Of a stretch of DNA of 64,000 nt, positions 2,290-46,388 are shown piece after piece. This DNA is from Chitinophagales bacterium (GTDB lineage: Bacteria; Bacteroidota; Bacteroidia; Chitinophagales; JADIYW01): contig JAMLHJ010000004.1 of assembly GCA_023957245.1 (NCBI GenBank), forward strand, positions 78,970-142,969. Reading direction: 5' to 3'. The number at the start of each line of letters is the position of its first letter. Position 1 is the stretch's first letter. The translations under genes and the position numbers were made by a program. The notes beneath the pieces were generated by a model that was not told where the DNA came from, made no database searches, and saw only the letters and a list, made by a program, of their open reading frames with translations.

Positions 2290-3564
2290 TTAAGAAGCTC
2301 TTAATCTGCCTGGAAGCCTTCTTGTAATACCTATTTGAGGAATGACCACTCTGAAAAAGGCCAATATTGGCGATTCATCAGGCTGAGTAGCTTTTCCTTT
2401 TCCTATTCTTCTTAACTGCCCTGAATACCATGATACTTCCATAATCGCCATTTTGTCAATGAAAGATATACCTGTTTTGATAGGTTTGACAGTATATTGT
2501 GCTTTTTGCCCATTTAATAATTTGTTAGGAAGGTCTGGCTCTATCGCCATAGATCTAGCAATGCCTACAAAATCTACTGCGCCTGAAGTAATGGCTTGTG
2601 CCATACCTTCTGCTGTCTGAAATCCACCAGTAACAACAAGAGGGGTATTAAAGATTTTTCTTGCCTTTTCAGCAAAATCAATAAAATAGGCTTCTCTTAA
2701 TCTAGTGCTTTCTTTCATTTTGATTCCCGTCATGGCAGGAGCTTCATAAGTGCCTCCAGATATTTCAATCAAATCTATCCCTATGTCTGAAAGTGCTTTA
2801 AGTGTATCTAAAGACTCCTCTTCAGTAAATCCTCCTCTTTGAAAATCTGCAGAATTTAACTTAATACCTATTGGAAAATCTTCTCCTACATTTTGACGCA
2901 TAGCTTTATATACTTCGAGTACAAATCTCCTTCTGTTTTCTGGACTGCCTCCCCATTGATCTGTTCGAATATTATGATGTGGAGATAAAAATTGACTGAC
3001 AAGATATCCATGTGCTCCATGAATTTGAACTCCGGTAAAACCAGCTTTTTTGACAATTCCTGCAGCTTTGCCAAATCTGTGTATTATATCTAATATCTGC
3101 TCATGTGTCAACTCTCTAGGAGTAGAAAAGAAGGCTTGCATGTCCGGTTTAAATGGAATCGCTGAAGGAGAAACATTATGATGATTAAGTCCTCTTGGAG
3201 ATTGCTTGCCAGGATGATTGAGTTGCACCCAACATTGTGTATTGTTGAGCGTGGCAGCTTGAGCCCATTGTTTTAACTTTTCTATATTGGTTTCATCTTC
3301 AATTACTACATTGCCGGGCTCTCCAAGATATCTCTTATCTATCATGACATTTCCTGTAATATTGATACCTATGCCACCTTGTGCCCATGTTTTATATAGC
3401 GTTATCAATTCTGGAGAGGGTGCATATTGTTTATCTCCAAGCCCTTCGCTCATGGCAGATTTTAAGATTCTATTTTTTACATTTACCTTATCATTGATAT
3501 TAAATGATTGAGCAATTACATCTTTGGCTAACATGTTTTTTCTTTTAAATTGAAATTTAATCAT
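2290..3564 (-). CDS. NADH:flavin oxidoreductase (Old Yellow Enzyme family)
   Basis: 424-aa ORF with OYE TIM-barrel motifs (HGAHGYLVSQFLSP, NRRRFVLEV). Alternative start at Met11. Confidence 0.8.
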   Translation of the reverse strand: MIKFQFKRKNMLAKDVIAQSFNINDKVNVKNRILKSAMSEGLGDKQYAPSPELITLYKTWAQGGIGINITGNVMIDKRYLGEPGNVVIEDETNIEKLKQWAQAATLNNTQCWVQLNHPGKQSPRGLNHHNVSPSAIPFKPDMQAFFSTPRELTHEQILDIIHRFGKAAGIVKKAGFTGVQIHGAHGYLVSQFLSPHHNIRTDQWGGSPENRRRFVLEVYKAMRQNVGEDFPIGIKLNSADFQRGGFTEEESLDTLKALSDIGIDLIEISGGTYEAPAMTGIKMKESTRLREAYFIDFAEKARKIFNTPLVVTGGFQTAEGMAQAITSGAVDFVGIARSMAIEPDLPNKLLNGQKAQYTVKPIKTGISFIDKMAIMEVSWYSGQLRRIGKGKATQPDESPILAFFRVVIPQIGITRRLPGRLRAS

Positions 3565-3667
3565 TTTTATCTGAAAGGTGAAATTTATGAAGTTTGAATC
3601 GCTTTCTAAGTAATTTCAAACCATTCTAAATATTGAATTGTGTATATTTACGCACAAAATTTTAAAC

Positions 3668-5347
3668 ATGTCTGAATTAAATAAATACAGTAAGCATATC
3701 ACGCAGGATCCTTCTCAACCAGCAGCACAAGCAATGTTGCATGCAATTGGATTGACAGATGAAGATTTGAAAAAAGCGCAAGTAGGTATAGTAGCGATGG
3801 GATGGGATGCCAATCCTTGTAATATGCACTTGAATGGTTTTGCTGAAATTGTAAAAGAAGAAGTCAATAAACAAGGTCTTGTCGGTTTGAATTTTTATAC
3901 GATAGGAGTGAGTGATGGTATCTCAATGGGTACATCTGGAATGAGATATTCATTGGTTTCAAGAGAAGTGATTGCAGATTCTATAGAAACAAATGCAGGT
4001 GCAGAATGGTATGATGGATTAATAGCATTGCCGGGCTGTGATAAAAATATGCCAGGTTCAGCAATTGCTTTGGCAAGATTGAATAGACCTTCTTTAATTA
4101 TTTATGGAGGAACGATAGCTGCAGGGGTTTATAAAGGGCAGAAATTGGATGTTGTTTCGGCATTTGAGGCTTTGGGTCAGAAAGTAGTAGGTTCTATTTC
4201 CGATGAGGATTTTAGTGGAGTTGTTAGCTGTGCATGTCCTGGCCCAGGAGCTTGTGGAGGTATGTACACTGCCAATACTATGGCTTCGGCATTAGAAGCA
4301 TTGGGATTGAGTTTACCATATAGCTCTTCAAGCCCAGCTATTAGTGCAGAAAAAAGAGAAGAGTTTTCGAGAGCAGCAAAAGCTATTAGAGTTTTGTTGG
4401 AAAAGGATATTAAGCCTAGTGATATATTGACTAAAAAAGCATTTGAAAATGCAATTCGTTTGGTGATTGTTTTAGGAGGTTCTACCAATGCAGTGATGCA
4501 CTTAATCGCTATGGCAAAAGCAGCAGATATTGAGGTGACAATAGATGATTTTGTGCGCTTGGGAGAGATTACACCTATGTTGGCTGATTTTAGACCTAGT
4601 GGTAAATATGTCATGGAAGACCTACAAGCAGAAGGAGGTATCCCAGCTGTGATGAAGTATATGCTTGAAAATGGTCTTTTACATGGTGATTGTATGACAG
4701 TTACAGGTAGAACGATAGCTGAAAATCTTGCAGAACTTCCAGGCTTGAAAGAAGGTCAAGAGATTATACAGCCTATTGACAAACCAATTAAAGCGACTAG
4801 CCATATTCGTATCTTATTTGGCAATTTAGCTTCAGAAGGTGCAGTAGCAAAAATTACTGGAAAAGAAGGTGAGTTCTTTGAGGGCAATGCAAGAGTGTTC
4901 GATAGTGAACAAGATACTATTGATGCTATGTTGAATAAAGAAATCAAGAAAGGTGACGTCCTTGTTATTCGATATGTGGGTCCTAAAGGTGGTCCAGGTA
5001 TGCCTGAGATGTTGAAGCCAACTTCTACATTGATGGGAGAAGGTTTAGGTAGTGATGTGGCATTGATTACTGATGGTAGATTTTCGGGAGGTTCTCATGG
5101 ATTTGTTGTAGGGCATGTTACACCAGAGGCGCAAGTAGGTGGAAATATTGCCTTAGTACAAAATGGTGACAGAATAAGAATTGATGCGGTAAATAATACA
5201 ATTGATGTATTGATTTCTGATGAAGAATTACTATCCAGAAAGTCAAAATGGGTAGCTCCTCCTCTGAAAGCTACAAAAGGAATTTTGTATAAGTTTGCCA
5301 AGAATGTATCCTCCGCCTCTCAGGGTTGTGTGACTGATGGGGATTAG
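3668..5347 (+). CDS. ilvD: dihydroxy-acid dehydratase
   Basis: The track ORF starts at a TTG (3638); the first ATG at 3668 gives [15 protein letters not shown] motifs present: [29 protein letters not shown]. Confidence 0.95.
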
Positions 5348-26895: not shown

Positions 26896-29800
26896 TTATT
26901 GATTAGCTTTTTTAGCTTCTCTTTTTTGTCTCCATTGCTCGTATTCATACATGATTGGAGATGCAACAAATACTGAAGAATATGTACCAATAACGACACC
27001 TATCGCCATAGCGAAAGAGAAACTTTTCAAGGTATCTCCGCCGAAGAAGAAGAGGATAATCAATGGTATAATGGTAGTGATACCAGTATTAAATGTTCTT
27101 GCTAATGTACTGTTAATCGCATTATTCATTTGACTAGCAAGTGGTAATTTCTTCTGTTCAGGGATATTAGAGTATTCTCTTAATCTGTCAAAGATAACGA
27201 CAGTATCATTCAATGAATATCCAATAACTGTTAATAATGCTGCAATAAATGTTTGATCTACTTCAAGAGAGAATGGAAGTATGCCGTGAAGTAGTGTATA
27301 GATGGCTAGCAAAATAAAAGCATCGTGAATAGTTGAAGCTATTGCACCAATTGAATAACCAAATGTTCTAAACCTCACTAAGATATAGATGAAAATAGCC
27401 AAGATGGAAAGAATAACAGCCCAAGTTGAACTTTTGATTATATCTACAGAAATGGTTGGGTCCACTTTTTGTTGGCTTAGAAGATTAATTTGTTTGAAAG
27501 CATCATAAGATGTGTTTTCAGGAAGGTATTTTTGTAAACCAAGATATAAAGTACTGTCAGCTAAATGGTCACTTTCTGCACTATTCTTATCAATAAGGAA
27601 AGATGTAGTGACTTTGATTTGATTATCTGAACCAATAGTTTTTACTATAGTACTTCCTTGGAAAGAATTATCTAAGCTTTCTTTGATATTGGCAGTATTT
27701 ACTGCTTGTTCAAATCTTACTTTGTATTGTCTTCCTCCTTTGAAGTCCACACCAGATTCAAAACCTCTTGTGAAGAATGAGATAGCTCCAGCAGAAAGGA
27801 TGACAATCGAAATGATATATTTTAATTTTCTACCTTTTAGGAAGTCAAATTTTGTCTCAGTTAAGAAGTTGTCAAATAATTTATTAGATGCTTTAATGTT
27901 TCTACCTTTTTTAATCCATCTTTCAACAATTAAATTAGAAACCAATACAGCAGTAAATAATGTAGTGATAATACCAATAATTAGAGTTGTAGCAAATCCT
28001 TTGATTGGGCCCATACCTATCAAGAATAGGATGATACCTGTAATCATTGTTGTTACGTTACCATCTATAATCGCAGGCAATGCATGTTTAAATCCAAGTC
28101 CAGCTGCCTTTTCAAATGAATGTCCAAGCTTTAATTCTTCTTTGATTCTTTCATATATCAATACGTTGGCATCTACAGCCATACCCATCGTTAATACGAT
28201 ACCTGCTATACCTGGTAAGGTCAATGTAGAACCTAATATCGCCATTATACCTACAATCAAGAATACGTTGAAGAACAATACTATTGTTGCAGCTATTCCT
28301 AATGTGCTATAATAGAACATCATAAATGCAATAACTAGTATAAATCCTACCAACATTGATAATAGTCCTGCTTTGATAGATTCAGCTCCCAAAGTAGCAC
28401 CCACCATGTCTTCCTCAACAATATTTGCAGAAGCAGGTAATTTACCTATTTTAAGAATATTAGAAAGGTCTGTAGCTTCTTCTTGAGTAAATGCTCCAGA
28501 AATAGATGAACTTCCTCCACTGATTTCTTCATTCACATTTGGTGCAGAATATACCTCATTGTCCACTACGATAGCAATATTTCTACCCACATTGCTTCCT
28601 GTCATTTTTTTCCATTTACTAGCACCTTCATGTGTCATTTTCATAGAAATAGTCACATTTCCGAACTGGTCAAGGTCTGGTTTTGAAGTTTCTACAGCAC
28701 CACCATCAATAAAAGGTTTGTCAGTTCCTGGTCTTTTCTTGATAGCATATAATTCGTAGATATTGTTTTTGTCACCGATAGGTTTTGCTCCCCACATGAA
28801 CTCAATATCCTTAGGAAATTTTGCTTTTACTTCTGCAACATTCAAGTACTGATTGACTAGAGCTGTGTCAATATTTGCTGAACGTCCAATTACTGGAGAT
28901 TCTACATATTGGTTGTTTTGGTCAATAGAAGGATAGAAGATTGAGAATAAAGGGAAATCTTTCTGAGCTTGTTTTTGTTGCTCTGTTTCTGTTAGTTTTT
29001 TGGTAGTATCTTTTGTATTGTCTTCACTTAAGATATCATCTAAAGTAGCAGTTGCACTTGCAGGATTTGTTGAATCTGTAGCATTTGCAACAGTTTTTCC
29101 ACCTTTAGTATAAGATAAGTATAATTTAACAGCATCATTAGCTTCATTGATTGCACCACCTAATTCATTAGCTTTATAGGTTTCCCAAAATTCTAGACTA
29201 GCTGTTGCTTGAAGCATTTTTCTTACACGAGCAGGATTGTCAACACCTCCGATTTCAACTGTAATTCTACCTTTTTTAGGTTCTAAAGTAATATTAGGTT
29301 GCTTTAACCCAAACTGATCCACACGGGCACTGATGATATTATATGTTCTGTGGATTGCGTTTTCAGATTCTTCTCTAATATATTTCAATACATCTTCATC
29401 AGATGAATTTGAATTGAGAATTTGGCTATTTGTACGTGTAGCAAAATAATTTGCCAATTTTGCAGTAGGGTTTTTCTCTTTCAAAGCCTTAGTGAACAAG
29501 GTAATGTAGTCATCTGCACTTTGAGACATTCTAGATTCTGCCAAATCCAAAGCCTCAATAAATACAGGACTAGAATTATTGTCTGAAAGTGACATTAATA
29601 GCTCTTTCACATTCACTTGAAGCACAGCAGACATACCGCCTTGTAAGTCTAGACCCAATGAAAGTTCATTTTCTTTGACTTTTTTAAATGTAGTACCTAA
29701 AAATACTTTCTCAGGAGCTAATGAATCTAAATATCTGTTTTTGTATTCTATTCTTTCTTTGTGAATAGAATCTTTATACAGAAATTGTTGTAGTAAATTA

Positions 29801-29961
29801 TTAGGATATAATGCGTTTGCATCTCCTGATGGTATCTGAGTCTCAGCTATTGCGACTGCTTGTTTCTCAATCTGGTTTGCTTTCCATGTAAAAAGCAATT
29901 GGTAAGTACAGATTGCAATGAGTAATAATGAAACTACTCTGACTAAACCTTTTCCTTGCAT
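26896..29961 (-). CDS. secDF: protein translocase subunit SecDF (fused)
   Basis: 1021 aa with SecD periplasmic domain, a 6-TM block, and then a SecF 6-TM block. Fused form typical of Bacteroidota. Confidence 0.95.
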   Translation of the reverse strand: MQGKGLVRVVSLLLIAICTYQLLFTWKANQIEKQAVAIAETQIPSGDANALYPNNLLQQFLYKDSIHKERIEYKNRYLDSLAPEKVFLGTTFKKVKENELSLGLDLQGGMSAVLQVNVKELLMSLSDNNSSPVFIEALDLAESRMSQSADDYITLFTKALKEKNPTAKLANYFATRTNSQILNSNSSDEDVLKYIREESENAIHRTYNIISARVDQFGLKQPNITLEPKKGRITVEIGGVDNPARVRKMLQATASLEFWETYKANELGGAINEANDAVKLYLSYTKGGKTVANATDSTNPASATATLDDILSEDNTKDTTKKLTETEQQKQAQKDFPLFSIFYPSIDQNNQYVESPVIGRSANIDTALVNQYLNVAEVKAKFPKDIEFMWGAKPIGDKNNIYELYAIKKRPGTDKPFIDGGAVETSKPDLDQFGNVTISMKMTHEGASKWKKMTGSNVGRNIAIVVDNEVYSAPNVNEEISGGSSSISGAFTQEEATDLSNILKIGKLPASANIVEEDMVGATLGAESIKAGLLSMLVGFILVIAFMMFYYSTLGIAATIVLFFNVFLIVGIMAILGSTLTLPGIAGIVLTMGMAVDANVLIYERIKEELKLGHSFEKAAGLGFKHALPAIIDGNVTTMITGIILFLIGMGPIKGFATTLIIGIITTLFTAVLVSNLIVERWIKKGRNIKASNKLFDNFLTETKFDFLKGRKLKYIISIVILSAGAISFFTRGFESGVDFKGGRQYKVRFEQAVNTANIKESLDNSFQGSTIVKTIGSDNQIKVTTSFLIDKNSAESDHLADSTLYLGLQKYLPENTSYDAFKQINLLSQQKVDPTISVDIIKSSTWAVILSILAIFIYILVRFRTFGYSIGAIASTIHDAFILLAIYTLLHGILPFSLEVDQTFIAALLTVIGYSLNDTVVIFDRLREYSNIPEQKKLPLASQMNNAINSTLARTFNTGITTIIPLIILFFFGGDTLKSFSFAMAIGVVIGTYSSVFVASPIMYEYEQWRQKREAKKANQ

Positions 29962-30220
29962 ATATATAAATCAGTTCTTAAAAAAGTTAAGGTGCAAATA
30001 TAAAGTATTTAATAAACAAATGAGAAATTACTATTCAGTCTATTTTATTTAATTTATAAACAAATCACATTTTGTGTAGTTATAGGAGTTTTTGGGGCTG
30101 TTATTTGAAAAAATATAGCGTTTTCAACGATTTTTTATTTTTTCTCTATTGTTGTTAATGTATTTTTAATATTTGAACTATTGTTTGAATGAAAATTAAT
30201 TTTTAAAATTGCACATTATT

Positions 30221-30262
30221 ATGAACAGTGTTTTCTTTTATAGCTACTATTTTTATCTCTAA
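30221..30262 (+). CDS. candidate Phe/Tyr-rich leader peptide (MNSVFFYSYYFYL)
   Basis: 13 codons, 7 of them Phe or Tyr (TTC TTT TAT AGC TAC TAT TTT TAT). It lies 46 nt upstream of a strong terminator and 84 nt upstream of pheA. Confidence 0.6.
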   Translation: MNSVFFYSYYFYL

Positions 30263-30307
30263 CCAAGGGACTGAATAAGCTATGAAAAAAATTATAGAAT
30301 AATTAAG

Positions 30308-30336
30308 GTCCCGAAATATTTCGGGACTTTTTTTTT
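30308..30336 (+). terminator. attenuator terminator in the pheA leader
   Basis: Perfect palindrome GTCCCGAAAT/ATTTCGGGAC followed by T9, ending 10 nt before the pheA ATG. An upstream GGGAC (30267-30271) could compete for the GTCCC arm. Confidence 0.65.
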
Positions 30337-30345
30337 GAATAGAGT

Positions 30346-31188
30346 ATGAGTATAAAAATTGCGATACAAGGTTTTAAGGCATCATTCCATGAGATTGCTG
30401 CATATAAGTATTTTGGAAAGGATATTGATACGATAGAATGTGAGACTTTTCAGGCACTCTTTGATTCAATGGAAGAAGGTGGTGCAGCTGATTATGCAGT
30501 GATGGCAATAGAAAATTCTGTTGCAGGTTCTATCTTACCTAATTATGCACGATTGAGAGATGCAGATTTAGAGATTTTCGGTGAAGTCTATTTGAGAATC
30601 GAAATGAATCTAATGGCACTTCATGGAGAAACAATTGAAACATTGACTGAAGTTCATTCCCATCCAATGGCATTATTACAATGTCAACAATTTTTTAGAC
30701 AATATCCTCATATCAGATTAATTGAGTCTAAGGACACAGCATTAAGTGCAATTGAGATTGTTGAACATCATATCAAAGGAAGAGGTGCTATTGGAAGTAA
30801 GTTGATTGCTGATACATTCGATTTGAATTTAATTGCTGAAGGAATAGAAACCAATAAAAGAAATTTTACTCGCTTTTTGATTTTGAAACGTATTGGAGCA
30901 GAAGCACCTTGCCAGTTGGAAGAGCCCAATAAATCTTCATTGTCTTTCAGGGCATTACATAGACCTGGTAGTCTTTCTGCTGCTTTATCTGCTATGGCAA
31001 TGTTTGGAATGAATTTGACAAAAATTCAATCTCTTCCTGTATTGGGAGAAGAATGGCAATACTATATGTATGCAGATTTAGAATTTAATGATTTTGGAAG
31101 CTACAAGGAGATGTTGGAAGTATTGCATCCATTGACAAAAGATTTAAAAATATTAGGAGAATATAAACAAGGACAAAAAATTTTATGA
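30346..31188 (+). CDS. pheA: prephenate dehydratase
   Basis: 280 aa with a PDT domain (AIENSVAGSI) plus a C-terminal ACT domain (NKSSLSFRALHRPGSL...ESRP-like). Confidence 0.9.
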   Translation: MSIKIAIQGFKASFHEIAAYKYFGKDIDTIECETFQALFDSMEEGGAADYAVMAIENSVAGSILPNYARLRDADLEIFGEVYLRIEMNLMALHGETIETLTEVHSHPMALLQCQQFFRQYPHIRLIESKDTALSAIEIVEHHIKGRGAIGSKLIADTFDLNLIAEGIETNKRNFTRFLILKRIGAEAPCQLEEPNKSSLSFRALHRPGSLSAALSAMAMFGMNLTKIQSLPVLGEEWQYYMYADLEFNDFGSYKEMLEVLHPLTKDLKILGEYKQGQKIL

Positions 31189-32351
31189 TTATCCAGCCAT
31201 CTAAGAAATTAGATTTTATTCAAGAATATTATTTCTCAAGAAAATTGAGAGAGATTGCTGAGATGGTAGCAGCAGGTAAACCTATTATTAATTTAGGAAT
31301 AGGTAATCCAGACCAGGCTCCAGGGCAAGAAGTGATAACAGCATTGCATAATTCTGCTGCTAATGTTAAAAATCATGGTTATCAGAGTTATATAGGCATT
31401 CCTGCATTGAGAAAAGCAATGGCTGAATGGTATTTACATACTTATCAAGTGACATTAGATTTTAATTCTGAAATTTTGCCTTTATTGGGTTCAAAAGAGG
31501 GAATTTCTCATATCAATCAAGCATTTCTTAATCCAGGTGATAAAGTATTGATTCCCAATCCTGGATATCCTACTTATGCTTCGGCAGCACGTTTGGCAGG
31601 TGCGATTCCTATAAGTTATGATTTGGATGAAAATAACGATTGGGCACCAGATTGGAGTTCGGTTTCAGAGGAGGATTTGAACGAAGCCAAAATCTTATGG
31701 ATTAACTACCCACACATGCCTACAGGAGCTGCAGGAAATGAAGAGATATTTAAAGAAGTATTGGCTAAAGCATTGAAGTACAAATTTTTAGTAGTTAATG
31801 ATAATCCTTATAGCTTAGTTTTGCCGAAAGGAAGACCTGTATCTTTTCTACAAATAGAAGGTGCTAAAGAGGTAGTGATAGAGTTAAATTCTTTATCAAA
31901 ATCACATAACCTTGCAGGGGCAAGAGTGGGTATGGTTGTTGGTGCGAAAGAGTACATTCAGAATATTTTGAAAGTTAAATCAAATATGGACTCAGGGATG
32001 TATCTTCCAGTACAAGAAGCTGCCGTTGCTGCATTGGCGTTGCCAGATGAATGGCATGAAGAAAGGAATAAAGTTTATGCTTCAAGATTAGAATTGGCAA
32101 AGCAAATTATGGATGCCATGAATTGTACTTATCAAGATAATCAAGTAGGTATGTTTTTTTGGGCAAAAATTCCCAATACTTATCAGCATGTCGAAGAATT
32201 GACAGAAAGAGTACTTCATGAAGCCAATGTATTTTTAACTCCTGGATTTATTTTTGGCAGTAAAGGAGAACGATTTGTACGTATTTCATTGTGTTGCAAT
32301 AATGAAATGTTACTCGAAGCATTGAATCGTATTAAAGCATTAAATCTATGA
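31185..32351 (+). CDS. class I/II pyridoxal-phosphate aminotransferase (aromatic/prephenate aminotransferase candidate)
   Basis: 388 aa with a PLP-lysine region (SLSKSHNLAGARVG). The ATGA overlap with pheA and its position between pheA and tyrA support the assignment. Confidence 0.85.
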   Translation: MIIQPSKKLDFIQEYYFSRKLREIAEMVAAGKPIINLGIGNPDQAPGQEVITALHNSAANVKNHGYQSYIGIPALRKAMAEWYLHTYQVTLDFNSEILPLLGSKEGISHINQAFLNPGDKVLIPNPGYPTYASAARLAGAIPISYDLDENNDWAPDWSSVSEEDLNEAKILWINYPHMPTGAAGNEEIFKEVLAKALKYKFLVVNDNPYSLVLPKGRPVSFLQIEGAKEVVIELNSLSKSHNLAGARVGMVVGAKEYIQNILKVKSNMDSGMYLPVQEAAVAALALPDEWHEERNKVYASRLELAKQIMDAMNCTYQDNQVGMFFWAKIPNTYQHVEELTERVLHEANVFLTPGFIFGSKGERFVRISLCCNNEMLLEALNRIKALNL

Positions 32352-33193
32352 AAAGAGTAGCCATACTGGGGATGGGATTGATAGGAGGATCTGTCGGTAT
32401 AGATTTAAAAAAGCGAGGATTTGCCTCTGAGATAATAGGTGTTGGACGCTCTCAAGCTAATATTGACAGAGCATTGGAATTGGGATTGGCAGATAAAATG
32501 CTTTCAAAGGAAGAAGCTGTTAAGAATGCTGATGTGATTATTTTGGCTGTGCCAGTAAATATTTTGATTGAAGAATTGAAATATGTATTAGATACAATGC
32601 GTCCAGATGCAGTAGTTACTGATATGGGTTCTACTAAGAGTAAAATGGTAGATGCTGTAAAAAGTCACCCTTTGCGCAAGCGTTATGTTGCTAGTCACCC
32701 GATGGCAGGTACAGAGTTTTCTGGTCCGAATGCAGCGTTTTCTGGTCTGTTTGATGGTAAGGTGGCTATTATTTGTGACAAAAAGAATTCAGATGAAGAT
32801 GCTGTAGAGTTGATAGAAGAAATGTATCGTGTGCTTGGAATGAAGCTTTTATATATGGATGCTGTAGCTCATGACCTACATGCTGCTTATGTATCACATG
32901 TGTCACATATTACAAGTTTTGTTTTGGGAGCAACAGTATTGGAAAAGGAGAAAAGTGAAAAAGCTATTTTGACAATGGCAGGTGGTGGATTTGAATCTAC
33001 TGTCCGTTTGGCAAAAAGCTCACCAGAAATGTGGTCGCAGATTTTTGAACAGAATGGACAGAATATTGTAGAAGTTTTGGATACTTATATTGATAAGATT
33101 ACTACGTTCAGAGATAAGATTAAAGAAGGCGATTATGAATATTTGAAACAATTCATGGGTGCCGCAAATGATATAAAAAGAATTTTAAAATAG
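32348..33193 (+). CDS. tyrA: prephenate dehydrogenase
   Basis: 281 aa with an N-terminal Rossmann GMGLIGGS and the HPMAG motif. ATGA overlap with the upstream gene. Confidence 0.85.
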   Translation: MKRVAILGMGLIGGSVGIDLKKRGFASEIIGVGRSQANIDRALELGLADKMLSKEEAVKNADVIILAVPVNILIEELKYVLDTMRPDAVVTDMGSTKSKMVDAVKSHPLRKRYVASHPMAGTEFSGPNAAFSGLFDGKVAIICDKKNSDEDAVELIEEMYRVLGMKLLYMDAVAHDLHAAYVSHVSHITSFVLGATVLEKEKSEKAILTMAGGGFESTVRLAKSSPEMWSQIFEQNGQNIVEVLDTYIDKITTFRDKIKEGDYEYLKQFMGAANDIKRILK

Positions 33194-33210
33194 ATAAATT
33201 AGCAAAAATT

Positions 33211-34287
33211 ATGGGAGACTTAAATATTGCCCCTCTTTCTTCATGGGGTTTACCAGACAAAAGGCCATTGATTATTTCTGGGCCATGTAGTGCAGAATCA
33301 GAAGAGCAAGTGATTGAAACTGCAAAAAGATTAGCAGATAAAGGTATTGATGTATTAAGAGCAGGAATCTGGAAACCTAGGACTCGTCCTGGTTCTTTTG
33401 AAGGATTGGGTAAGATTGCTTTGCCTTGGTTGAAAAAAGCAGGTGAAATCATCGGAAAGCCAATTGCTGTTGAAGTAGCTACTAGAGAACATGTATTTGA
33501 CTGTCTAAAAGCAGGAGTAGATATTTTGTGGATAGGTGCTCGTACAACTGCCAATCCTTTTTCAGTGCAAGAAATTGCTGATGCTCTAGAAGGAGTCGAT
33601 ATTCCAGTGATTGTAAAAAATCCTGTGAATCCAGATTTGCAATTGTGGATAGGAGCATTGGAGCGTATCAATAGAGCGGGTATTACTAAAATTGGAGCTT
33701 TGCACAGAGGGTTTTCTTCTTATGATAAATCTAAGTACAGAAACAAACCAATGTGGGAATTTCCTATCGAATTGAAAAGATTGTATCCTACTCTTCCATT
33801 GTTCAATGACCCTAGTCATATCTGTGGCAATAGAGAACACTTGGCTTCAGTAGCTCAAAAAGCATTGGATTTGGACTTTGATGGATTGATGTTGGAATCT
33901 CATAGAGATCCTGATAATGCCTGGTCAGATGCTTCTCAACAAGTGACTCCAGAGCGTTTGGGCGAAATTGTCAATGGATTAGTGATTAGAAATGCAGATC
34001 CAAATATTGTAGCTAATAAATTGGATGAATTGAGATCTCAAATAGACAGAATAGATAATTATATTTTAGAGATTTTGGCTGACCGTATGGATGTGGTTGA
34101 AAAAATCGGTGAGTTTAAAAGAGATAATAAAATCACTATCCTTCAATCTGGAAGATGGGATGAAATTGTTCATGATAGAGTTCAAAAAGGATTGAATAAA
34201 GGTCTGACAGAAGACTTTATTAAAGAATTGTTTGAAGCTGTCCACCAAGAATCTATTAGACATCAGACTAAAGTGATGAATGCATAG
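33211..34287 (+). CDS. bifunctional 3-deoxy-7-phosphoheptulonate (DAHP) synthase / chorismate mutase type II
   Basis: 358 aa. The N-terminal ~265 aa form a DAHP/KDO8P-synthase-type barrel (GPCSAES, KPRTRPGSFEG, DPSH). The C-terminal ~90 aa form a CM_2 helix bundle (LRSQIDRIDNYILEILADRM). Confidence 0.9.
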   Translation: MGDLNIAPLSSWGLPDKRPLIISGPCSAESEEQVIETAKRLADKGIDVLRAGIWKPRTRPGSFEGLGKIALPWLKKAGEIIGKPIAVEVATREHVFDCLKAGVDILWIGARTTANPFSVQEIADALEGVDIPVIVKNPVNPDLQLWIGALERINRAGITKIGALHRGFSSYDKSKYRNKPMWEFPIELKRLYPTLPLFNDPSHICGNREHLASVAQKALDLDFDGLMLESHRDPDNAWSDASQQVTPERLGEIVNGLVIRNADPNIVANKLDELRSQIDRIDNYILEILADRMDVVEKIGEFKRDNKITILQSGRWDEIVHDRVQKGLNKGLTEDFIKELFEAVHQESIRHQTKVMNA

Positions 34288-34328
34288 TATATAACAAAAC
34301 ATTTCAAGAATAATTGTTTTTTATTAAG

Positions 34329-34359
34329 AGTCTTTGAGTAAATCTCAAAGACTTTTTTA
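34329..34359 (+). terminator. intrinsic terminator after the aromatic operon
   Basis: AGTCTTTGAG / CTCAAAGACT stem, followed by TTTTTT. Confidence 0.7.
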
Positions 34360-34454
34360 TTTTTGCAGGAGTCTTCCAGATAGGAATTTTGATTTTTAGA
34401 TATATTTTAATTTTCAATGTTCATAATTTCAAATCTGTTTTTCATTTTTGAAAT

Positions 34455-34526
34455 GGCCTCATAGTTCAATGGATAGAACGGAAGTTTCCTAAACTTTAAA
34501 TGTAGGTTCGATTCCTACTGGGGCCA
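34455..34526 (+). tRNA. tRNA-Arg (anticodon CCT)
   Basis: Folded by hand. Acceptor GGCCTCA/TGGGGCC, D arm GTTC-AATGGATA-GAAC, anticodon arm GAAGT-TTCCTAA-ACTTT (CCT at 34488-34490), T arm GTAGG-TTCGATT-CCTAC, discriminator A. No encoded CCA. Confidence 0.9.
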
Positions 34527-34843
34527 CAATAATAAATTACAATTTATTGATTGTTAGCAAGTTGATGCATTTCATTGTAATTCATATTTCTTTATAATGT
34601 AATATAATAAAGCGTATTAAAGCACATTGAAGTAGTTTTGGAATAAAACGCAAAATATATTTTCTAAGAAAGATTTTTAAAAAAGACTAAAAGAGGTGCC
34701 TTAGTGTCTTATTCAAACCACAAGCTCAATAGCCGTGGGGCTATGGCAACTATTATTTTAGCGGTAATTCATAGTGATTCATCACAATAAAAAAAGACCC
34801 TGCAAGCGCAGAGGCTTGGCTTTACTATAATAGTGTTGAATTA

Positions 34844-35239
34844 TTAAAGTTCTATAGCCAATAGTTCTTTTCCTAATTTATGCAACCCTTGTTCTATCTT
34901 TCTTTTCGTCTCCGGTCTGGGTTTTTTCAATCCTGTTGAGTATTGATGAATTTGTTTTTGATTGATACCTGTTAGTCGTTCTATTGCTGGATTTGACAAT
35001 ACGCCCTTAAAGTAATTGAGTAGGCTTTCTGTGTCAAATTGATAGACAAGTTCATAATCTCCTTTCAATTCATTTGGAATTTGATTTTCGTTAAATGTCT
35101 TTACGGTCTCTATTGCATCCAAAATAGATTGTTTGCATTCATTAACTGTATCTCCTGCACCGTAAATGCCGTTGATGTTTTCTGCATAAGCTCCGTATGA
35201 ATCGGAGCTTCTTTCAATGATGATTTTAATTGTATTCAT
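34844..35239 (-). CDS. hicB: HicB-family antitoxin (N-terminal HicB fold + C-terminal HTH)
   Basis: 131 aa. The N-terminus is typical of HicB-like antitoxins (IIIERSSDSYGAYAENINGIYGAGDTVNEC). The C-terminus has an Xre-like HTH (LTGINQKQIHQYSTG). It lies 24 nt downstream of a hicA-like ORF. Confidence 0.7.
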   Translation of the reverse strand: MNTIKIIIERSSDSYGAYAENINGIYGAGDTVNECKQSILDAIETVKTFNENQIPNELKGDYELVYQFDTESLLNYFKGVLSNPAIERLTGINQKQIHQYSTGLKKPRPETKRKIEQGLHKLGKELLAIEL

Positions 35240-35263
35240 AATGCTTTTTTTTAAAAGGACGTT

Positions 35264-35443
35264 TTAAAGCCCCATTTCTTTTTTCAAACTTCTTTCTAAT
35301 CCTTTTGGCATTTCTTTTGAACCGTGGTTGGGAACAGCTACTGTTTTACCGTCCTTTTCCCATATCTCATGACTTCCTTTTCCCTGTCTTAATAAACTCC
35401 ATTTGTTTTTTCTGACTAATTTTAAAAATTCACTGTATTTCGT
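35264..35443 (-). CDS. hicA: HicA-family mRNA-interferase toxin lacking a canonical start codon
   Basis: Hand translation gives (T)KYSEFLKLVRKNKWSLLRQGKGSHEIWEKDGKTVAVPNHGSKEMPKGLERSLKKEMGL*. It is HicA-like, including the GSH motif. The codon where Met is expected is ACG, and upstream in frame are ATT, AGT, CAT and then TAG. It is below the 60-aa track cutoff. Confidence 0.6.
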   Translation of the reverse strand, partial: TKYSEFLKLVRKNKWSLLRQGKGSHEIWEKDGKTVAVPNHGSKEMPKGLERSLKKEMGL

Positions 35444-35812
35444 AATACTATGCTAAAATAATTCAACAACTCAAAGGTATATATTTATATATCACCATCC
35501 AAATTTAAAAACGACTATTTTAAATTTTACTTATATTATAAATATGTCAGAAGGTCAACTATAAACCACTTTCTTTCAATATGTATGGAAGTCTATCCAC
35601 AGTTAAGGAGATGCATGTGGACAGTACCCAACGGTGGTTATAGGGACAAGCTTGATGCTATAAGGTTACAGACAATAGGAGTGGTTGCAAGCGTGTGGGA
35701 CAGCTACTATTAATGGAAGTAATATTTACATTTCTATTAAGTTATAAAAAGTGTCTCTAAATAATTCAAACAAATATATTATATCCGAACTTGTTAAATA
35801 AACTTTCTTATT

Positions 35813-45624: not shown

Positions 45625-45653
45625 TAATGTATTTTTTAGTGAGATGTAATTCA

Positions 45654-46019
45654 AGTCGAGAGCCAAGAATCAAGAATCAAGAGCCAAGACAATGAAGTTA
45701 CGAAGTACGAGTTACGAATGAAAATGCTGTTGAAACTAACCACAAAGAATGTTAAGTTTTACGCTAAGAACACTAAGTTCAATGAAGTAAAGTGGAGGTT
45801 TGAAGATTTGAAGATGCTGGTGGTTGAGCCCTGTCGAAACCAACCGCAAGAATGATAAAATTTAACCGCAAAGCACGCTAAGTTTTACGCTAAGAATAAG
45901 GTAACGAGTAGATGTAGATTACTTCGTTCCTCGCAAGGATTCTTCTAGCTCATCATACTGAGTTTGTTTCAGCATTAAAAGAACAATAATAATTGACCCT
46001 GAATCGAGTTCATGGTGAC
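45654..46019 (+). repeat. left copy of a long non-coding direct repeat (one 127-bp unit)
   Basis: Collinear by eye with 49071-49557, with only about a dozen point differences. No ORF of 60 aa or more. G+C is higher than in the flanks. Confidence 0.85.
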
Positions 46020-46388
46020 TACCACTGTTTTTTGTTTAATTTATTATCAAAATACTTTCACTTTAATTATACTTGTATTCATAACATATTGATTATTTGC
46101 AAATAAATTTCATTTGAATTGCCTTTATTCATTTTTCTTTAGTATATTACAATTAGTATAATATGATGACTATTATTAGGATGCCGTATGAAAATGATAA
46201 TGCGATATTATACATTGCCTCTTGTTTGTTCAAACAATAATTTTGTTAAAGTTTGTAGTAAAATTTCTGTCTTAGAAGGTATATTTTCAAAAACTCTCCT
46301 GAAAATTCAAACTATAAAACCCTATAATATATTTTTAAAATAAAACAGGATATTTTTATCCGATTTATTCAAAAGTAAAAAAAGCGAT

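Follow-up and report, generated by a model that had tools for sequence, protein, structure and literature searches.

How the uncultured Chitinophagales bacterium behind assembly GCA_023957245.1 might match the transcription of its phenylalanine and tyrosine biosynthesis genes to the supply of these amino acids is the question raised by a short region in front of pheA, which we analysed within the window (the whole stretch of 64,000 nucleotides taken from contig JAMLHJ010000004.1). The region holds a 13-codon open reading frame (ORF) rich in Phe and Tyr codons, followed by a terminator hairpin. Attenuation of pheA through a leader peptide entered the textbooks in the 1970s-80s, and very probably the element is a ribosome-mediated leader-peptide transcription attenuator of the pheA-aminotransferase-tyrA-DAHP synthase/chorismate mutase operon, reading the charging of both tRNA-Phe and tRNA-Tyr. 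A sequence-only reading of this DNA had already proposed an attenuator, and the proposal is now strongly supported by the conservation of the mini-ORF, the covariation of its stems and a conserved antiterminator pairing. The parts of the switch exist in this DNA, they are conserved, their helices covary, and their folds have the expected geometry.

The leader ORF starts with the ATG at 30221, ends with the TAA at 30260-30262 and encodes the peptide MNSVFFYSYYFYL, which contains no Trp and in which residues 5-12 include three Phe and four Tyr. Such a density, seven F/Y in eight residues, is unique to the leader: the two strands of the window hold 1,323 ORFs of 6-45 codons that start with ATG, and the runner-up has five. 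The perfect palindrome GTCCCGAAAT/ATTTCGGGAC begins 46 nt past the last base of the stop codon and runs into T9, with 9 nt separating T9 from the pheA ATG at 30346, and this hairpin is the top terminator-like site in 29500-35500 (11 pairs) in a scan that returned 9 sites vs 2.6 expected. Leader ORF and hairpin together exceed chance expectation, and the sequence-only reading had placed and spelled both correctly, from the clustered codons of the ORF to the 10+10 palindrome, the 46-nt gap, the T9 and the spacing to pheA. Because the upstream SecDF gene is divergently transcribed, the hairpin is not its terminator; it is an intrinsic terminator (10-11-bp hairpin plus U9) that separates the leader ORF from the first structural gene, as in an attenuator. 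The clustered codons are also those of the end products, given that the operon carries both pheA and tyrA: NCBIfam finds the two prephenate enzymes, the aminotransferase and the DAHP synthase/chorismate mutase that had been read from the sequence.

We then compared 170 pheA loci, of which 80 came from GTDB species genomes (alignment-based scan), 80 from a metagenome scan, and 10 from exact-protein look-ups of relatives with 71-90% PheA identity; the metagenome scan for closer relatives gave a best match that was 65% identical, and 158 loci had enough upstream sequence, or 159 counting the window. An F/Y mini-ORF, taken as an ATG ORF with at least six F/Y in eight residues no more than 400 nt upstream of pheA, is present in 145 of these 158 regions (92%; 146/159 including the window), with scores of 6-8, compared with 5 of 2,928 control 403-nt blocks from the same loci and 0/158 on the reverse strand of the pheA-upstream regions. 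The taxa that carry it span at least five Bacteroidota orders and include Chitinophagales, Saprospiraceae/Lewinellaceae, Bacteroidales, Marinilabiliales, Flavobacteriales and Hymenobacter, with Chitinophaga, Puia, Flavisolibacter, Parabacteroides, Barnesiella, Paludibacter, Lentimicrobiaceae, Flagellimonas and other Flavobacteriaceae also represented; cultivable carriers of the family are, for instance, Chitinophaga, Flavobacterium johnsoniae and B. thetaiotaomicron. In 145 of the 146 leaders, the interval from the F/Y ORF to pheA contains a T-tract and a hairpin whose energy is -6 kcal/mol or lower. In the 13 close relatives of the window, the ATG, the frame and the F/Y run are retained without exception, while the third codon position varies between T and C (TTT/TTC, TAT/TAC) at all eight core codons and the non-synonymous core substitutions replace F, S or G by Y, a pattern of the coding type. 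Their T-tract is equally constant, with seven consecutive T invariant and at least eight T of nine in 13/13. The comparison with related Bacteroidota that had been suggested as a check therefore finds the mini-ORF kept in frame, with its F/Y codons retained.

Some loci depart from this arrangement. A handful of pheA loci (L005, L024, L048, L069 and L077) have no clear F/Y mini-ORF (score of 5 or less), and the weak covariance-model matches of L005 (35 bits) and L048 (30 bits) suggest that their leaders have degenerated or diverged; the PheA of L005 is Bacteroidota-like although the locus bears the label "Candidatus Sericytochromatia", so its contig may be mis-binned. Tandem attenuators, with two successive F/Y mini-ORFs up to 600 nt upstream of pheA, occur in at least 13 loci (L034, L017, L019, L020, L021, L027, L029, L030, L040, L043, L074, L114 and L117), including all seven Chitinophaga loci, Hymenobacter and some Bacteroidales. 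Direct reading of one of them (L034:2698-2971) gives each mini-ORF its own antiterminator strand and U-tract terminator, and the first leader of the Chitinophaga tandem also has a Trp codon (...FGFYYFWYQE). In one metagenomic locus (L092:2482-2615), the F/Y leader MNLFTSIFTFYYYYFNR and its terminator lie between pheA (1501-2343) and an ORF of 386 aa (2637-3797), and no F/Y leader was found upstream of pheA there; since this leader sits after pheA, the module can regulate the distal operon part only.

With the ORF and the terminator in place, what would make the element a switch is a set of alternative helices between them, and the predicted folds of the window RNA follow the classical trp/pheL logic (coordinates in Table 1). 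The 141-nt leader folds with -32.8 kcal/mol (z = -4.0 vs dinucleotide shuffles). In the absence of a ribosome, the predicted structure has the long helix P1 and the UCUCU:AGGGA helix (P1b), leaving GGUCCC free, and the full leader then consists of P1 plus the terminator, at -31.9 kcal/mol, which corresponds to termination. With the A site of a ribosome at any of F5-F11, GGGACU:GGUCCC instead encloses CUAUGA:UUAUAG (-13.3 kcal/mol), corresponding to antitermination; at Y12 the antiterminator helix is partly occluded (-6.1 kcal/mol) and antitermination is weakened, and at the stop codon GGGAC is covered, the antiterminator is not formed and termination is predicted again. In these folds, the antiterminator is exclusive with the terminator, with which it has the arm 30307-30312 in common, and it is exposed only by a stalled ribosome, while P1 and UCUCU:AGGGA supply the anti-antiterminator (1:2) helix with its 5' arm over the regulatory codons. 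Both alternative pairings that the sequence-only reading had offered as plausible are found here: GGGAC (30267-30271) with GTCCC (30308-30312) is the conserved antiterminator, complementary family-wide and formed in the stalled-ribosome folds, and ATAGCT (30240-30245) with AGCTAT (30278-30283) is the core of P1, which shows G-C to A-U covariation.

The same helices emerge from comparison of sequences. RNAalifold on the close relatives predicts P1, the UCUC:GGGA helix and the terminator, and in this 13-sequence alignment the P1 core has four pairs with compensatory changes (e.g., G-C to A-U, AGC/GCT vs TAC/GTT) and P1b is paired in 98% of cells. Within this close clade, the GGG of GGGACTG is invariant and its remaining letters nearly so (at least 12/13), and being invariant, the antiterminator is uninformative there; for this reason it was tested by duplex energies and permutation across the whole family. 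Across the family, the antiterminator strand starts at a median of 11 nt past the last F/Y codon, just beyond the footprint of a stalled ribosome. The ORF of most lineages continues across the strand, which accordingly sits a median of 18 nt ahead of the stop-codon end. Pairing of the strand with the 5' arm of the terminator yields a median duplex energy of -12.2 kcal/mol (z = -3.4; p <= 0.05 vs shuffles in 84% of loci), and cognate strand/arm pairs have a mean of -11.7 kcal/mol vs -8.3 when re-paired at random (standard deviation of permutation means, 0.22), shuffle and permutation statistics that overstate independence, as the loci are phylogenetically related. From lineage to lineage strand and arm change in concert, the pairs reading GTCCTGC/GCAGGA (Parabacteroides), GTTCCG/CGGAAC, ATCCCGGT/ACCGGGA and GGAGTTC/GAACTCC.

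A covariance model (R1) built from the window's clade alone has a single match in the window, the element itself (124.7 bits), and in distant taxa its matches lie directly upstream of pheA, among them flavobacterial L066 (48 bits, E = 4e-5) and L051 (42 bits, E = 5e-4), which argues that the leaders of the window clade and of distant taxa belong to one RNA family. An alignment of 47 sequences shows compensatory changes in 21 of 22 pairs, comprising 9/9 in the P1 core, 4/4 in P1b (91% paired) and 8/9 in the terminator (97% of cells paired), pair counts that are inflated by the fitting of this alignment to the structure of the model; its covariation score of 0.403 compares with 0.202 for shuffles, none of the 500 attaining it, and sliding the partners gives 0.108 at most. 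The search for compensatory changes in the stems that had been proposed from the sequence thus finds them in P1, P1b and the terminator.

As regards the start of transcription, promoters of Bacteroidota have the layout TTG-N(~19-21)-TAnnTTTG (-33/-7). In the window, candidate boxes that fit this layout precede the leader ORF (Table 1), and a TTTGC/ATTGC block is retained in 13/13 close relatives some 20 nt from the invariant TTG. A canonical TAnnTTTG lies no more than 90 nt upstream of the leader ATG, usually 16-33 nt before it, in 86 of 127 distinct family members. A sigma-70-type promoter scan gave 24 sites vs 25.8 expected and is uninformative, because its consensus is not that of Bacteroidota. 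Given that the -7-like box of the window ends 9 nt before the leader ATG, the 5' untranslated region (5' UTR) would be of about 3-6 nt, with a predicted start at about 30215-30218, and the leader ORF may be nearly leaderless. A -7-type box ending 7-10 nt before the leader ATG is seen in L045, L072 and L036 as well as in the window, with the canonical TATATTTG in L045 and L072, which would imply, for several lineages of Chitinophagales, a leader ORF that is leaderless or nearly so. A block gTTAATgtatttTTAATAttt (30153-30178) with a TTAAT repeat at about one helical turn immediately precedes the -33-like TTG; it is retained in most of the 13 close relatives despite a differing upstream gene (SecDF, a radical-SAM enzyme, a hydrolase or an aldehyde dehydrogenase) and could be a transcription-factor site or UP-like element, providing a second layer of control.

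Taken together, these parts suggest the following sequence of events. Transcription would begin a few nt upstream of the leader ATG. With Phe and Tyr plentiful, the ribosome would pass FFYSYYFY and reach the TAA, where its footprint would cover GGGACU; with no ribosome engaged, P1 and UCUCU:AGGGA would sequester the same strand. In either case GGUCCC would be free, the GTCCCGAAAT/ATTTCGGGAC hairpin and U9 would form, and RNA polymerase would terminate 10 nt short of pheA. In a shortage of charged tRNA-Phe or tRNA-Tyr, the ribosome would stall in 30233-30253, melting the P1 5' arm and UCUCU and exposing GGGACU, which would pair with GGUCCC once this is transcribed; with the CUAUGA:UUAUAG inner hairpin as stabiliser, the terminator would be pre-empted and the operon transcribed.

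Several points weigh against this attenuator, in addition to the shared ancestry of the loci and the inflated pair counts already mentioned. The outer helix of the antiterminator has 6 bp and -7.8 kcal/mol alone, compared with -14.7 kcal/mol for the terminator hairpin alone, so the switch would have to be kinetic, the antiterminator winning because it can form before the terminator 3' arm is made. No covariation of the antiterminator was seen within the close clade, where its outer helix is 96% paired and invariant. A 5' UTR as short as the one predicted (about 3-6 nt) is unusual for an ORF that is translated efficiently. Finally, the translation of the ORF, the stalling, the start site and the amino-acid-dependent read-through are steps that we infer for an organism known as a metagenome-assembled genome (MAG) sequence.

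Among the other explanations, the one that survives best is nevertheless improbable: an attenuator of the E. coli pheL type in which tRNA-Phe charging alone matters and the Tyr codons are passengers. UAU and UAC are one base away from UUU and UUC, suit an AT-rich genome and help to build P1, and pheA is the first structural gene. The Rfam search leans in the same direction: with Rfam 15 at gathering thresholds, the whole window gives a tRNA alone and 20 diverse Bacteroidota pheA loci give no match, so that, on running the scan the sequence-only reading had asked for, no family reaches its threshold at the leader, and at E <= 10 the best match in 29900-30450 is Phe_leader RF01859 (31.7 bits, E = 0.002), the other matches being chance small-RNA matches driven by the terminator. 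With a gathering cut-off of 55 bits, the window element is not a member of RF01859. The codons themselves tell more. Phe is slightly above Tyr family-wide (means of 5.2 and 4.1), with F-to-Y interchange at some positions, but all 112 distinct leader peptides contain at least three Phe and at least two Tyr, as fits the dual Phe+Tyr sensing first suggested from the sequence, and in the window's clade Tyr 9-10 are invariant, with synonymous TAT/TAC changes. Moreover, slow decoding at any codon of the run would, in the folds, equally expose the antiterminator, and the operon has tyrA beside pheA; for Bacteroidales, Table 7 of PMC1173090 lists tyrA as the last operon gene, and our comparison of Tyr codon number with tyrA presence is bounded there by the gene order pheA>aat>DAHPS-CM>tyrA (DAHPS-CM, the DAHP synthase/chorismate mutase), which places tyrA outside the 3-kb flank.

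It is less probable still that the hairpin acts on pheA translation or mRNA stability, or is a constitutive partial terminator, with no sensing by the mini-ORF. With only 9 nt between its U-tract and the pheA ATG, the hairpin could block the start of translation in an organism without Shine-Dalgarno sequences, and the great thermodynamic advantage of the terminator over the antiterminator would suit such a role. However, anything from 3 to 249 nt separates hairpin and pheA (median 25, in 125 distinct loci), so the hairpin is not placed relative to the start codon, which favours transcription termination over start-codon occlusion; the long U-tract is conserved, and the conserved F/Y ORF, the covarying antiterminator and the fixed spacing of about 11 nt would all be left unexplained. 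The Flavobacterium psychrophilum homologue, besides, reads through in a condition-dependent manner (PMC9723704). We give hardly any credence to a third reading, in which the mini-ORF makes a functional micropeptide of hydrophobic or aromatic character, or the RNA is a riboswitch-like element that binds a ligand or a protein, with an incidental terminator linkage: small aromatic-rich peptides can insert into membranes and the RNA is well structured (z = -4.0), but beyond the F/Y run the peptides conserve neither sequence nor length (from 13 to over 30 aa), the "K-x-G" tails conserved in other lineages fall on the GGGA motif of the RNA, no T-box or riboswitch family of Rfam matches in 29900-30450 even at E <= 10, and the ORF is always tied to a pheA-containing aromatic operon and a terminator, even in L092, where it follows pheA.

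Table 1. Features of the leader, its operon and the flanking genes in the window (+, forward strand; -, reverse strand).
Feature	Coordinates	Strand	Basis or remark
SecDF, upstream gene, divergent	26896-29961	-	
Putative -33-like TTG of leader promoter	30181-30183	+	Invariant in 13/13 close relatives; tentative assignment
Putative -7 box TAAAATTG, one mismatch to TAnnTTTG	30204-30211	+	TTG core invariant in relatives
Leader ORF MNSVFFYSYYFYL + TAA	30221-30262	+	Direct read; conserved in relatives
P1 5' arm (anti-antiterminator, region 1), overlapping F/Y codons	30230-30252	+	Pairs with 30273-30292 in minimum-free-energy fold
FFYSYYFY codon run, 3 Phe/4 Tyr; proposed ribosome stalling sites	30233-30256	+	Read, relatives, folding
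UCUCU pairing AGGGA 30266-30270 (helix P1b); predicted to sequester antiterminator strand without ribosome	30256-30260	+	RNAalifold on relatives
GGGACU, antiterminator 5' strand (region 2); mimics terminator 3' arm	30267-30272	+	Predicted to pair with GGUCCC 30307-30312 under ribosome stall
P1 3' arm	30273-30292	+	Folding and alignments
Inner antiterminator hairpin CUAUGA:UUAUAG	30280-30285 with 30292-30297	+	Alternative to P1 3' arm
Intrinsic terminator hairpin; core palindrome 30308-30327	30305-30330	+	Read, terminator scan, folding
U9 tract (T9) of terminator	30328-30336	+	Read
Regulated operon pheA-aminotransferase-tyrA-DAHP synthase/chorismate mutase	30346-34287	+	NCBIfam
pheA, prephenate dehydratase	30346-31188	+	NCBIfam
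Aminotransferase	31185-32351	+	NCBIfam
tyrA, prephenate dehydrogenase	32348-33193	+	NCBIfam
DAHP synthase fused to chorismate mutase	33211-34287	+	NCBIfam
Operon terminator	34326-34356		Terminator scan
tRNA-Arg	34455		Downstream of operon

In the operon itself, overlaps of 4 nt join the first three genes, making their translational coupling likely, and the fourth starts after 17 nt; a protein record identical to this PheA exists from a Chitinophagales MAG. Elsewhere in the window, the only other leader-peptide candidate, an Ile-rich mini-ORF (46153-46215, minus strand), was rejected, having no downstream gene; it lies inside an intergenic gap of about 760 nt (45625-46388) between two plus-strand genes, a gap without any ORF of at least 90 aa, and is probably a chance ORF.

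Beyond the single locus, we advance only tentatively, and with rather more doubt than conviction, a broader proposal: that the leaders form a single RNA family of ancient origin that extends throughout Bacteroidota, an attenuator of pheA/tyrA responding to Phe and Tyr alike that was never formally defined, with tandem variants and a leaderless-like ORF in the window clade. If true, the translation of a sensor ORF would be leaderless-like in a phylum without Shine-Dalgarno initiation. The comparison of loci does show one design of mixed Phe/Tyr codons and a GGGA/UCCC switch to be common to most Bacteroidota, the gut Parabacteroides and other Bacteroidales included. In practical terms, an uncultured Chitinophagales bacterium gains a confident regulatory annotation of its operon for Phe and Tyr biosynthesis, Rfam could gain a family, given that its current models miss the leader, and the mini-ORFs could be annotated systematically; the element might also provide a natural Phe/Tyr-responsive expression switch, or a read-out of aromatic limitation, in Bacteroidota, where regulatory parts are scarce. 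No concept is changed by the finding of the leader.

The kind of element and its presence in Bacteroidota are, in fact, already known. The sequence-only reading had been aware of no described Phe/Tyr leader of this form, but one has been annotated upstream of Flavobacterium psychrophilum pheA as a "leader peptide attenuation element" (THC0290_N_0195; Guérin et al. 2021, ISME Commun, PMC9723704, Table S7/SI D9), which makes the novelty lower than had been hoped. There, the start of the pheA 5' region has been mapped to 6 nt past the box; the 171-nt 5' transcript has a 20-nt 5' UTR and encodes the leader MNTNNTFYSNNSFYFYWNIGRDCYMVI, read-through is condition-specific and operon expression peaks in minimal medium, and the authors remarked that the leader is conserved in other Flavobacteriaceae genera and absent from Rfam (PMC9723704). 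Its antiterminator GGGATTGT/ACAATCCC, GGGA(UUGU)/(ACAA)UCCC, folds with -12.6 kcal/mol and follows the design seen in the window. Both leaders belong to Bacteroidota, stand upstream of pheA-aminotransferase and combine an F/Y mini-ORF with a GGGA strand, a UCCC arm and U9, and the window accordingly has every part by which a Bacteroidota pheA F/Y leader is recognised (mini-ORF, pheA-aminotransferase operon, GGGA/UCCC strands and U-tract). They differ in that the ORF has 13 codons in the window and 27 in F. psychrophilum, with the stop before the GGGA strand in the former and after it in the latter, and in the 5' UTR, predicted at about 3-6 nt here vs 20 nt measured there; their primary sequences have diverged, and the F. 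psychrophilum leader has transcriptome support, whereas the window element is known from its DNA alone.

A predicted attenuator before the B. thetaiotaomicron pheA>hisHb>aroA-aroQ>tyrA operon, attributed to the Merino database, is listed by Song, Bonner and Jensen (2005, PMC1173090, Table 7). It concerns the same operon family, and Parabacteroides and other Bacteroidales loci carry the F/Y leader in our sample, while the listing, as far as that table goes, is a terminator/antiterminator prediction without a leader peptide or Phe/Tyr codon content. Beyond these two reports, we found no explicit description of a Bacteroidota pheA leader, nor of its near-universal distribution in the phylum, its consistent Phe+Tyr mix or its tandem forms, in literature that did not cover Vitreschak et al. 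2004.

More distant comparisons place the window leader among the other aromatic attenuators. The Bacteroid-trp leader RF01692 (Weinberg et al. 2010, PMC2864571) is likewise a leader-peptide attenuator from Bacteroidota and serves the third of the aromatic amino acids; unlike the window leader it has Trp codons, precedes the trpE operon and is another RNA family, and in 29900-30450 it gives no match at E <= 10, so the window element is not one of its members. The dual Phe+Tyr concept, for its part, is shared by the F/Y-containing candidate upstream ORFs found before shikimate-pathway genes of non-Bacteroidota by Stav et al. (2019, PMC6429828, Fig. 6b), which belong to other phyla and are likened by concept only. 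The pheL-pheA leaders of E. coli and other gamma-proteobacteria, whose families have been described (PMC3082878), share with the window the four-region layout, the codons over region 1, the competition of 2:3 vs 3:4 and the terminator before pheA, and their model RF01859, the best Rfam match, aligns across its full length, with many non-canonical pairs in the aligned P1. Nevertheless, pheL contains Phe codons only, 7 of 15, whereas the leader of the window mixes Phe and Tyr codons and, unlike pheL, controls tyrA and DAHP synthase as well.

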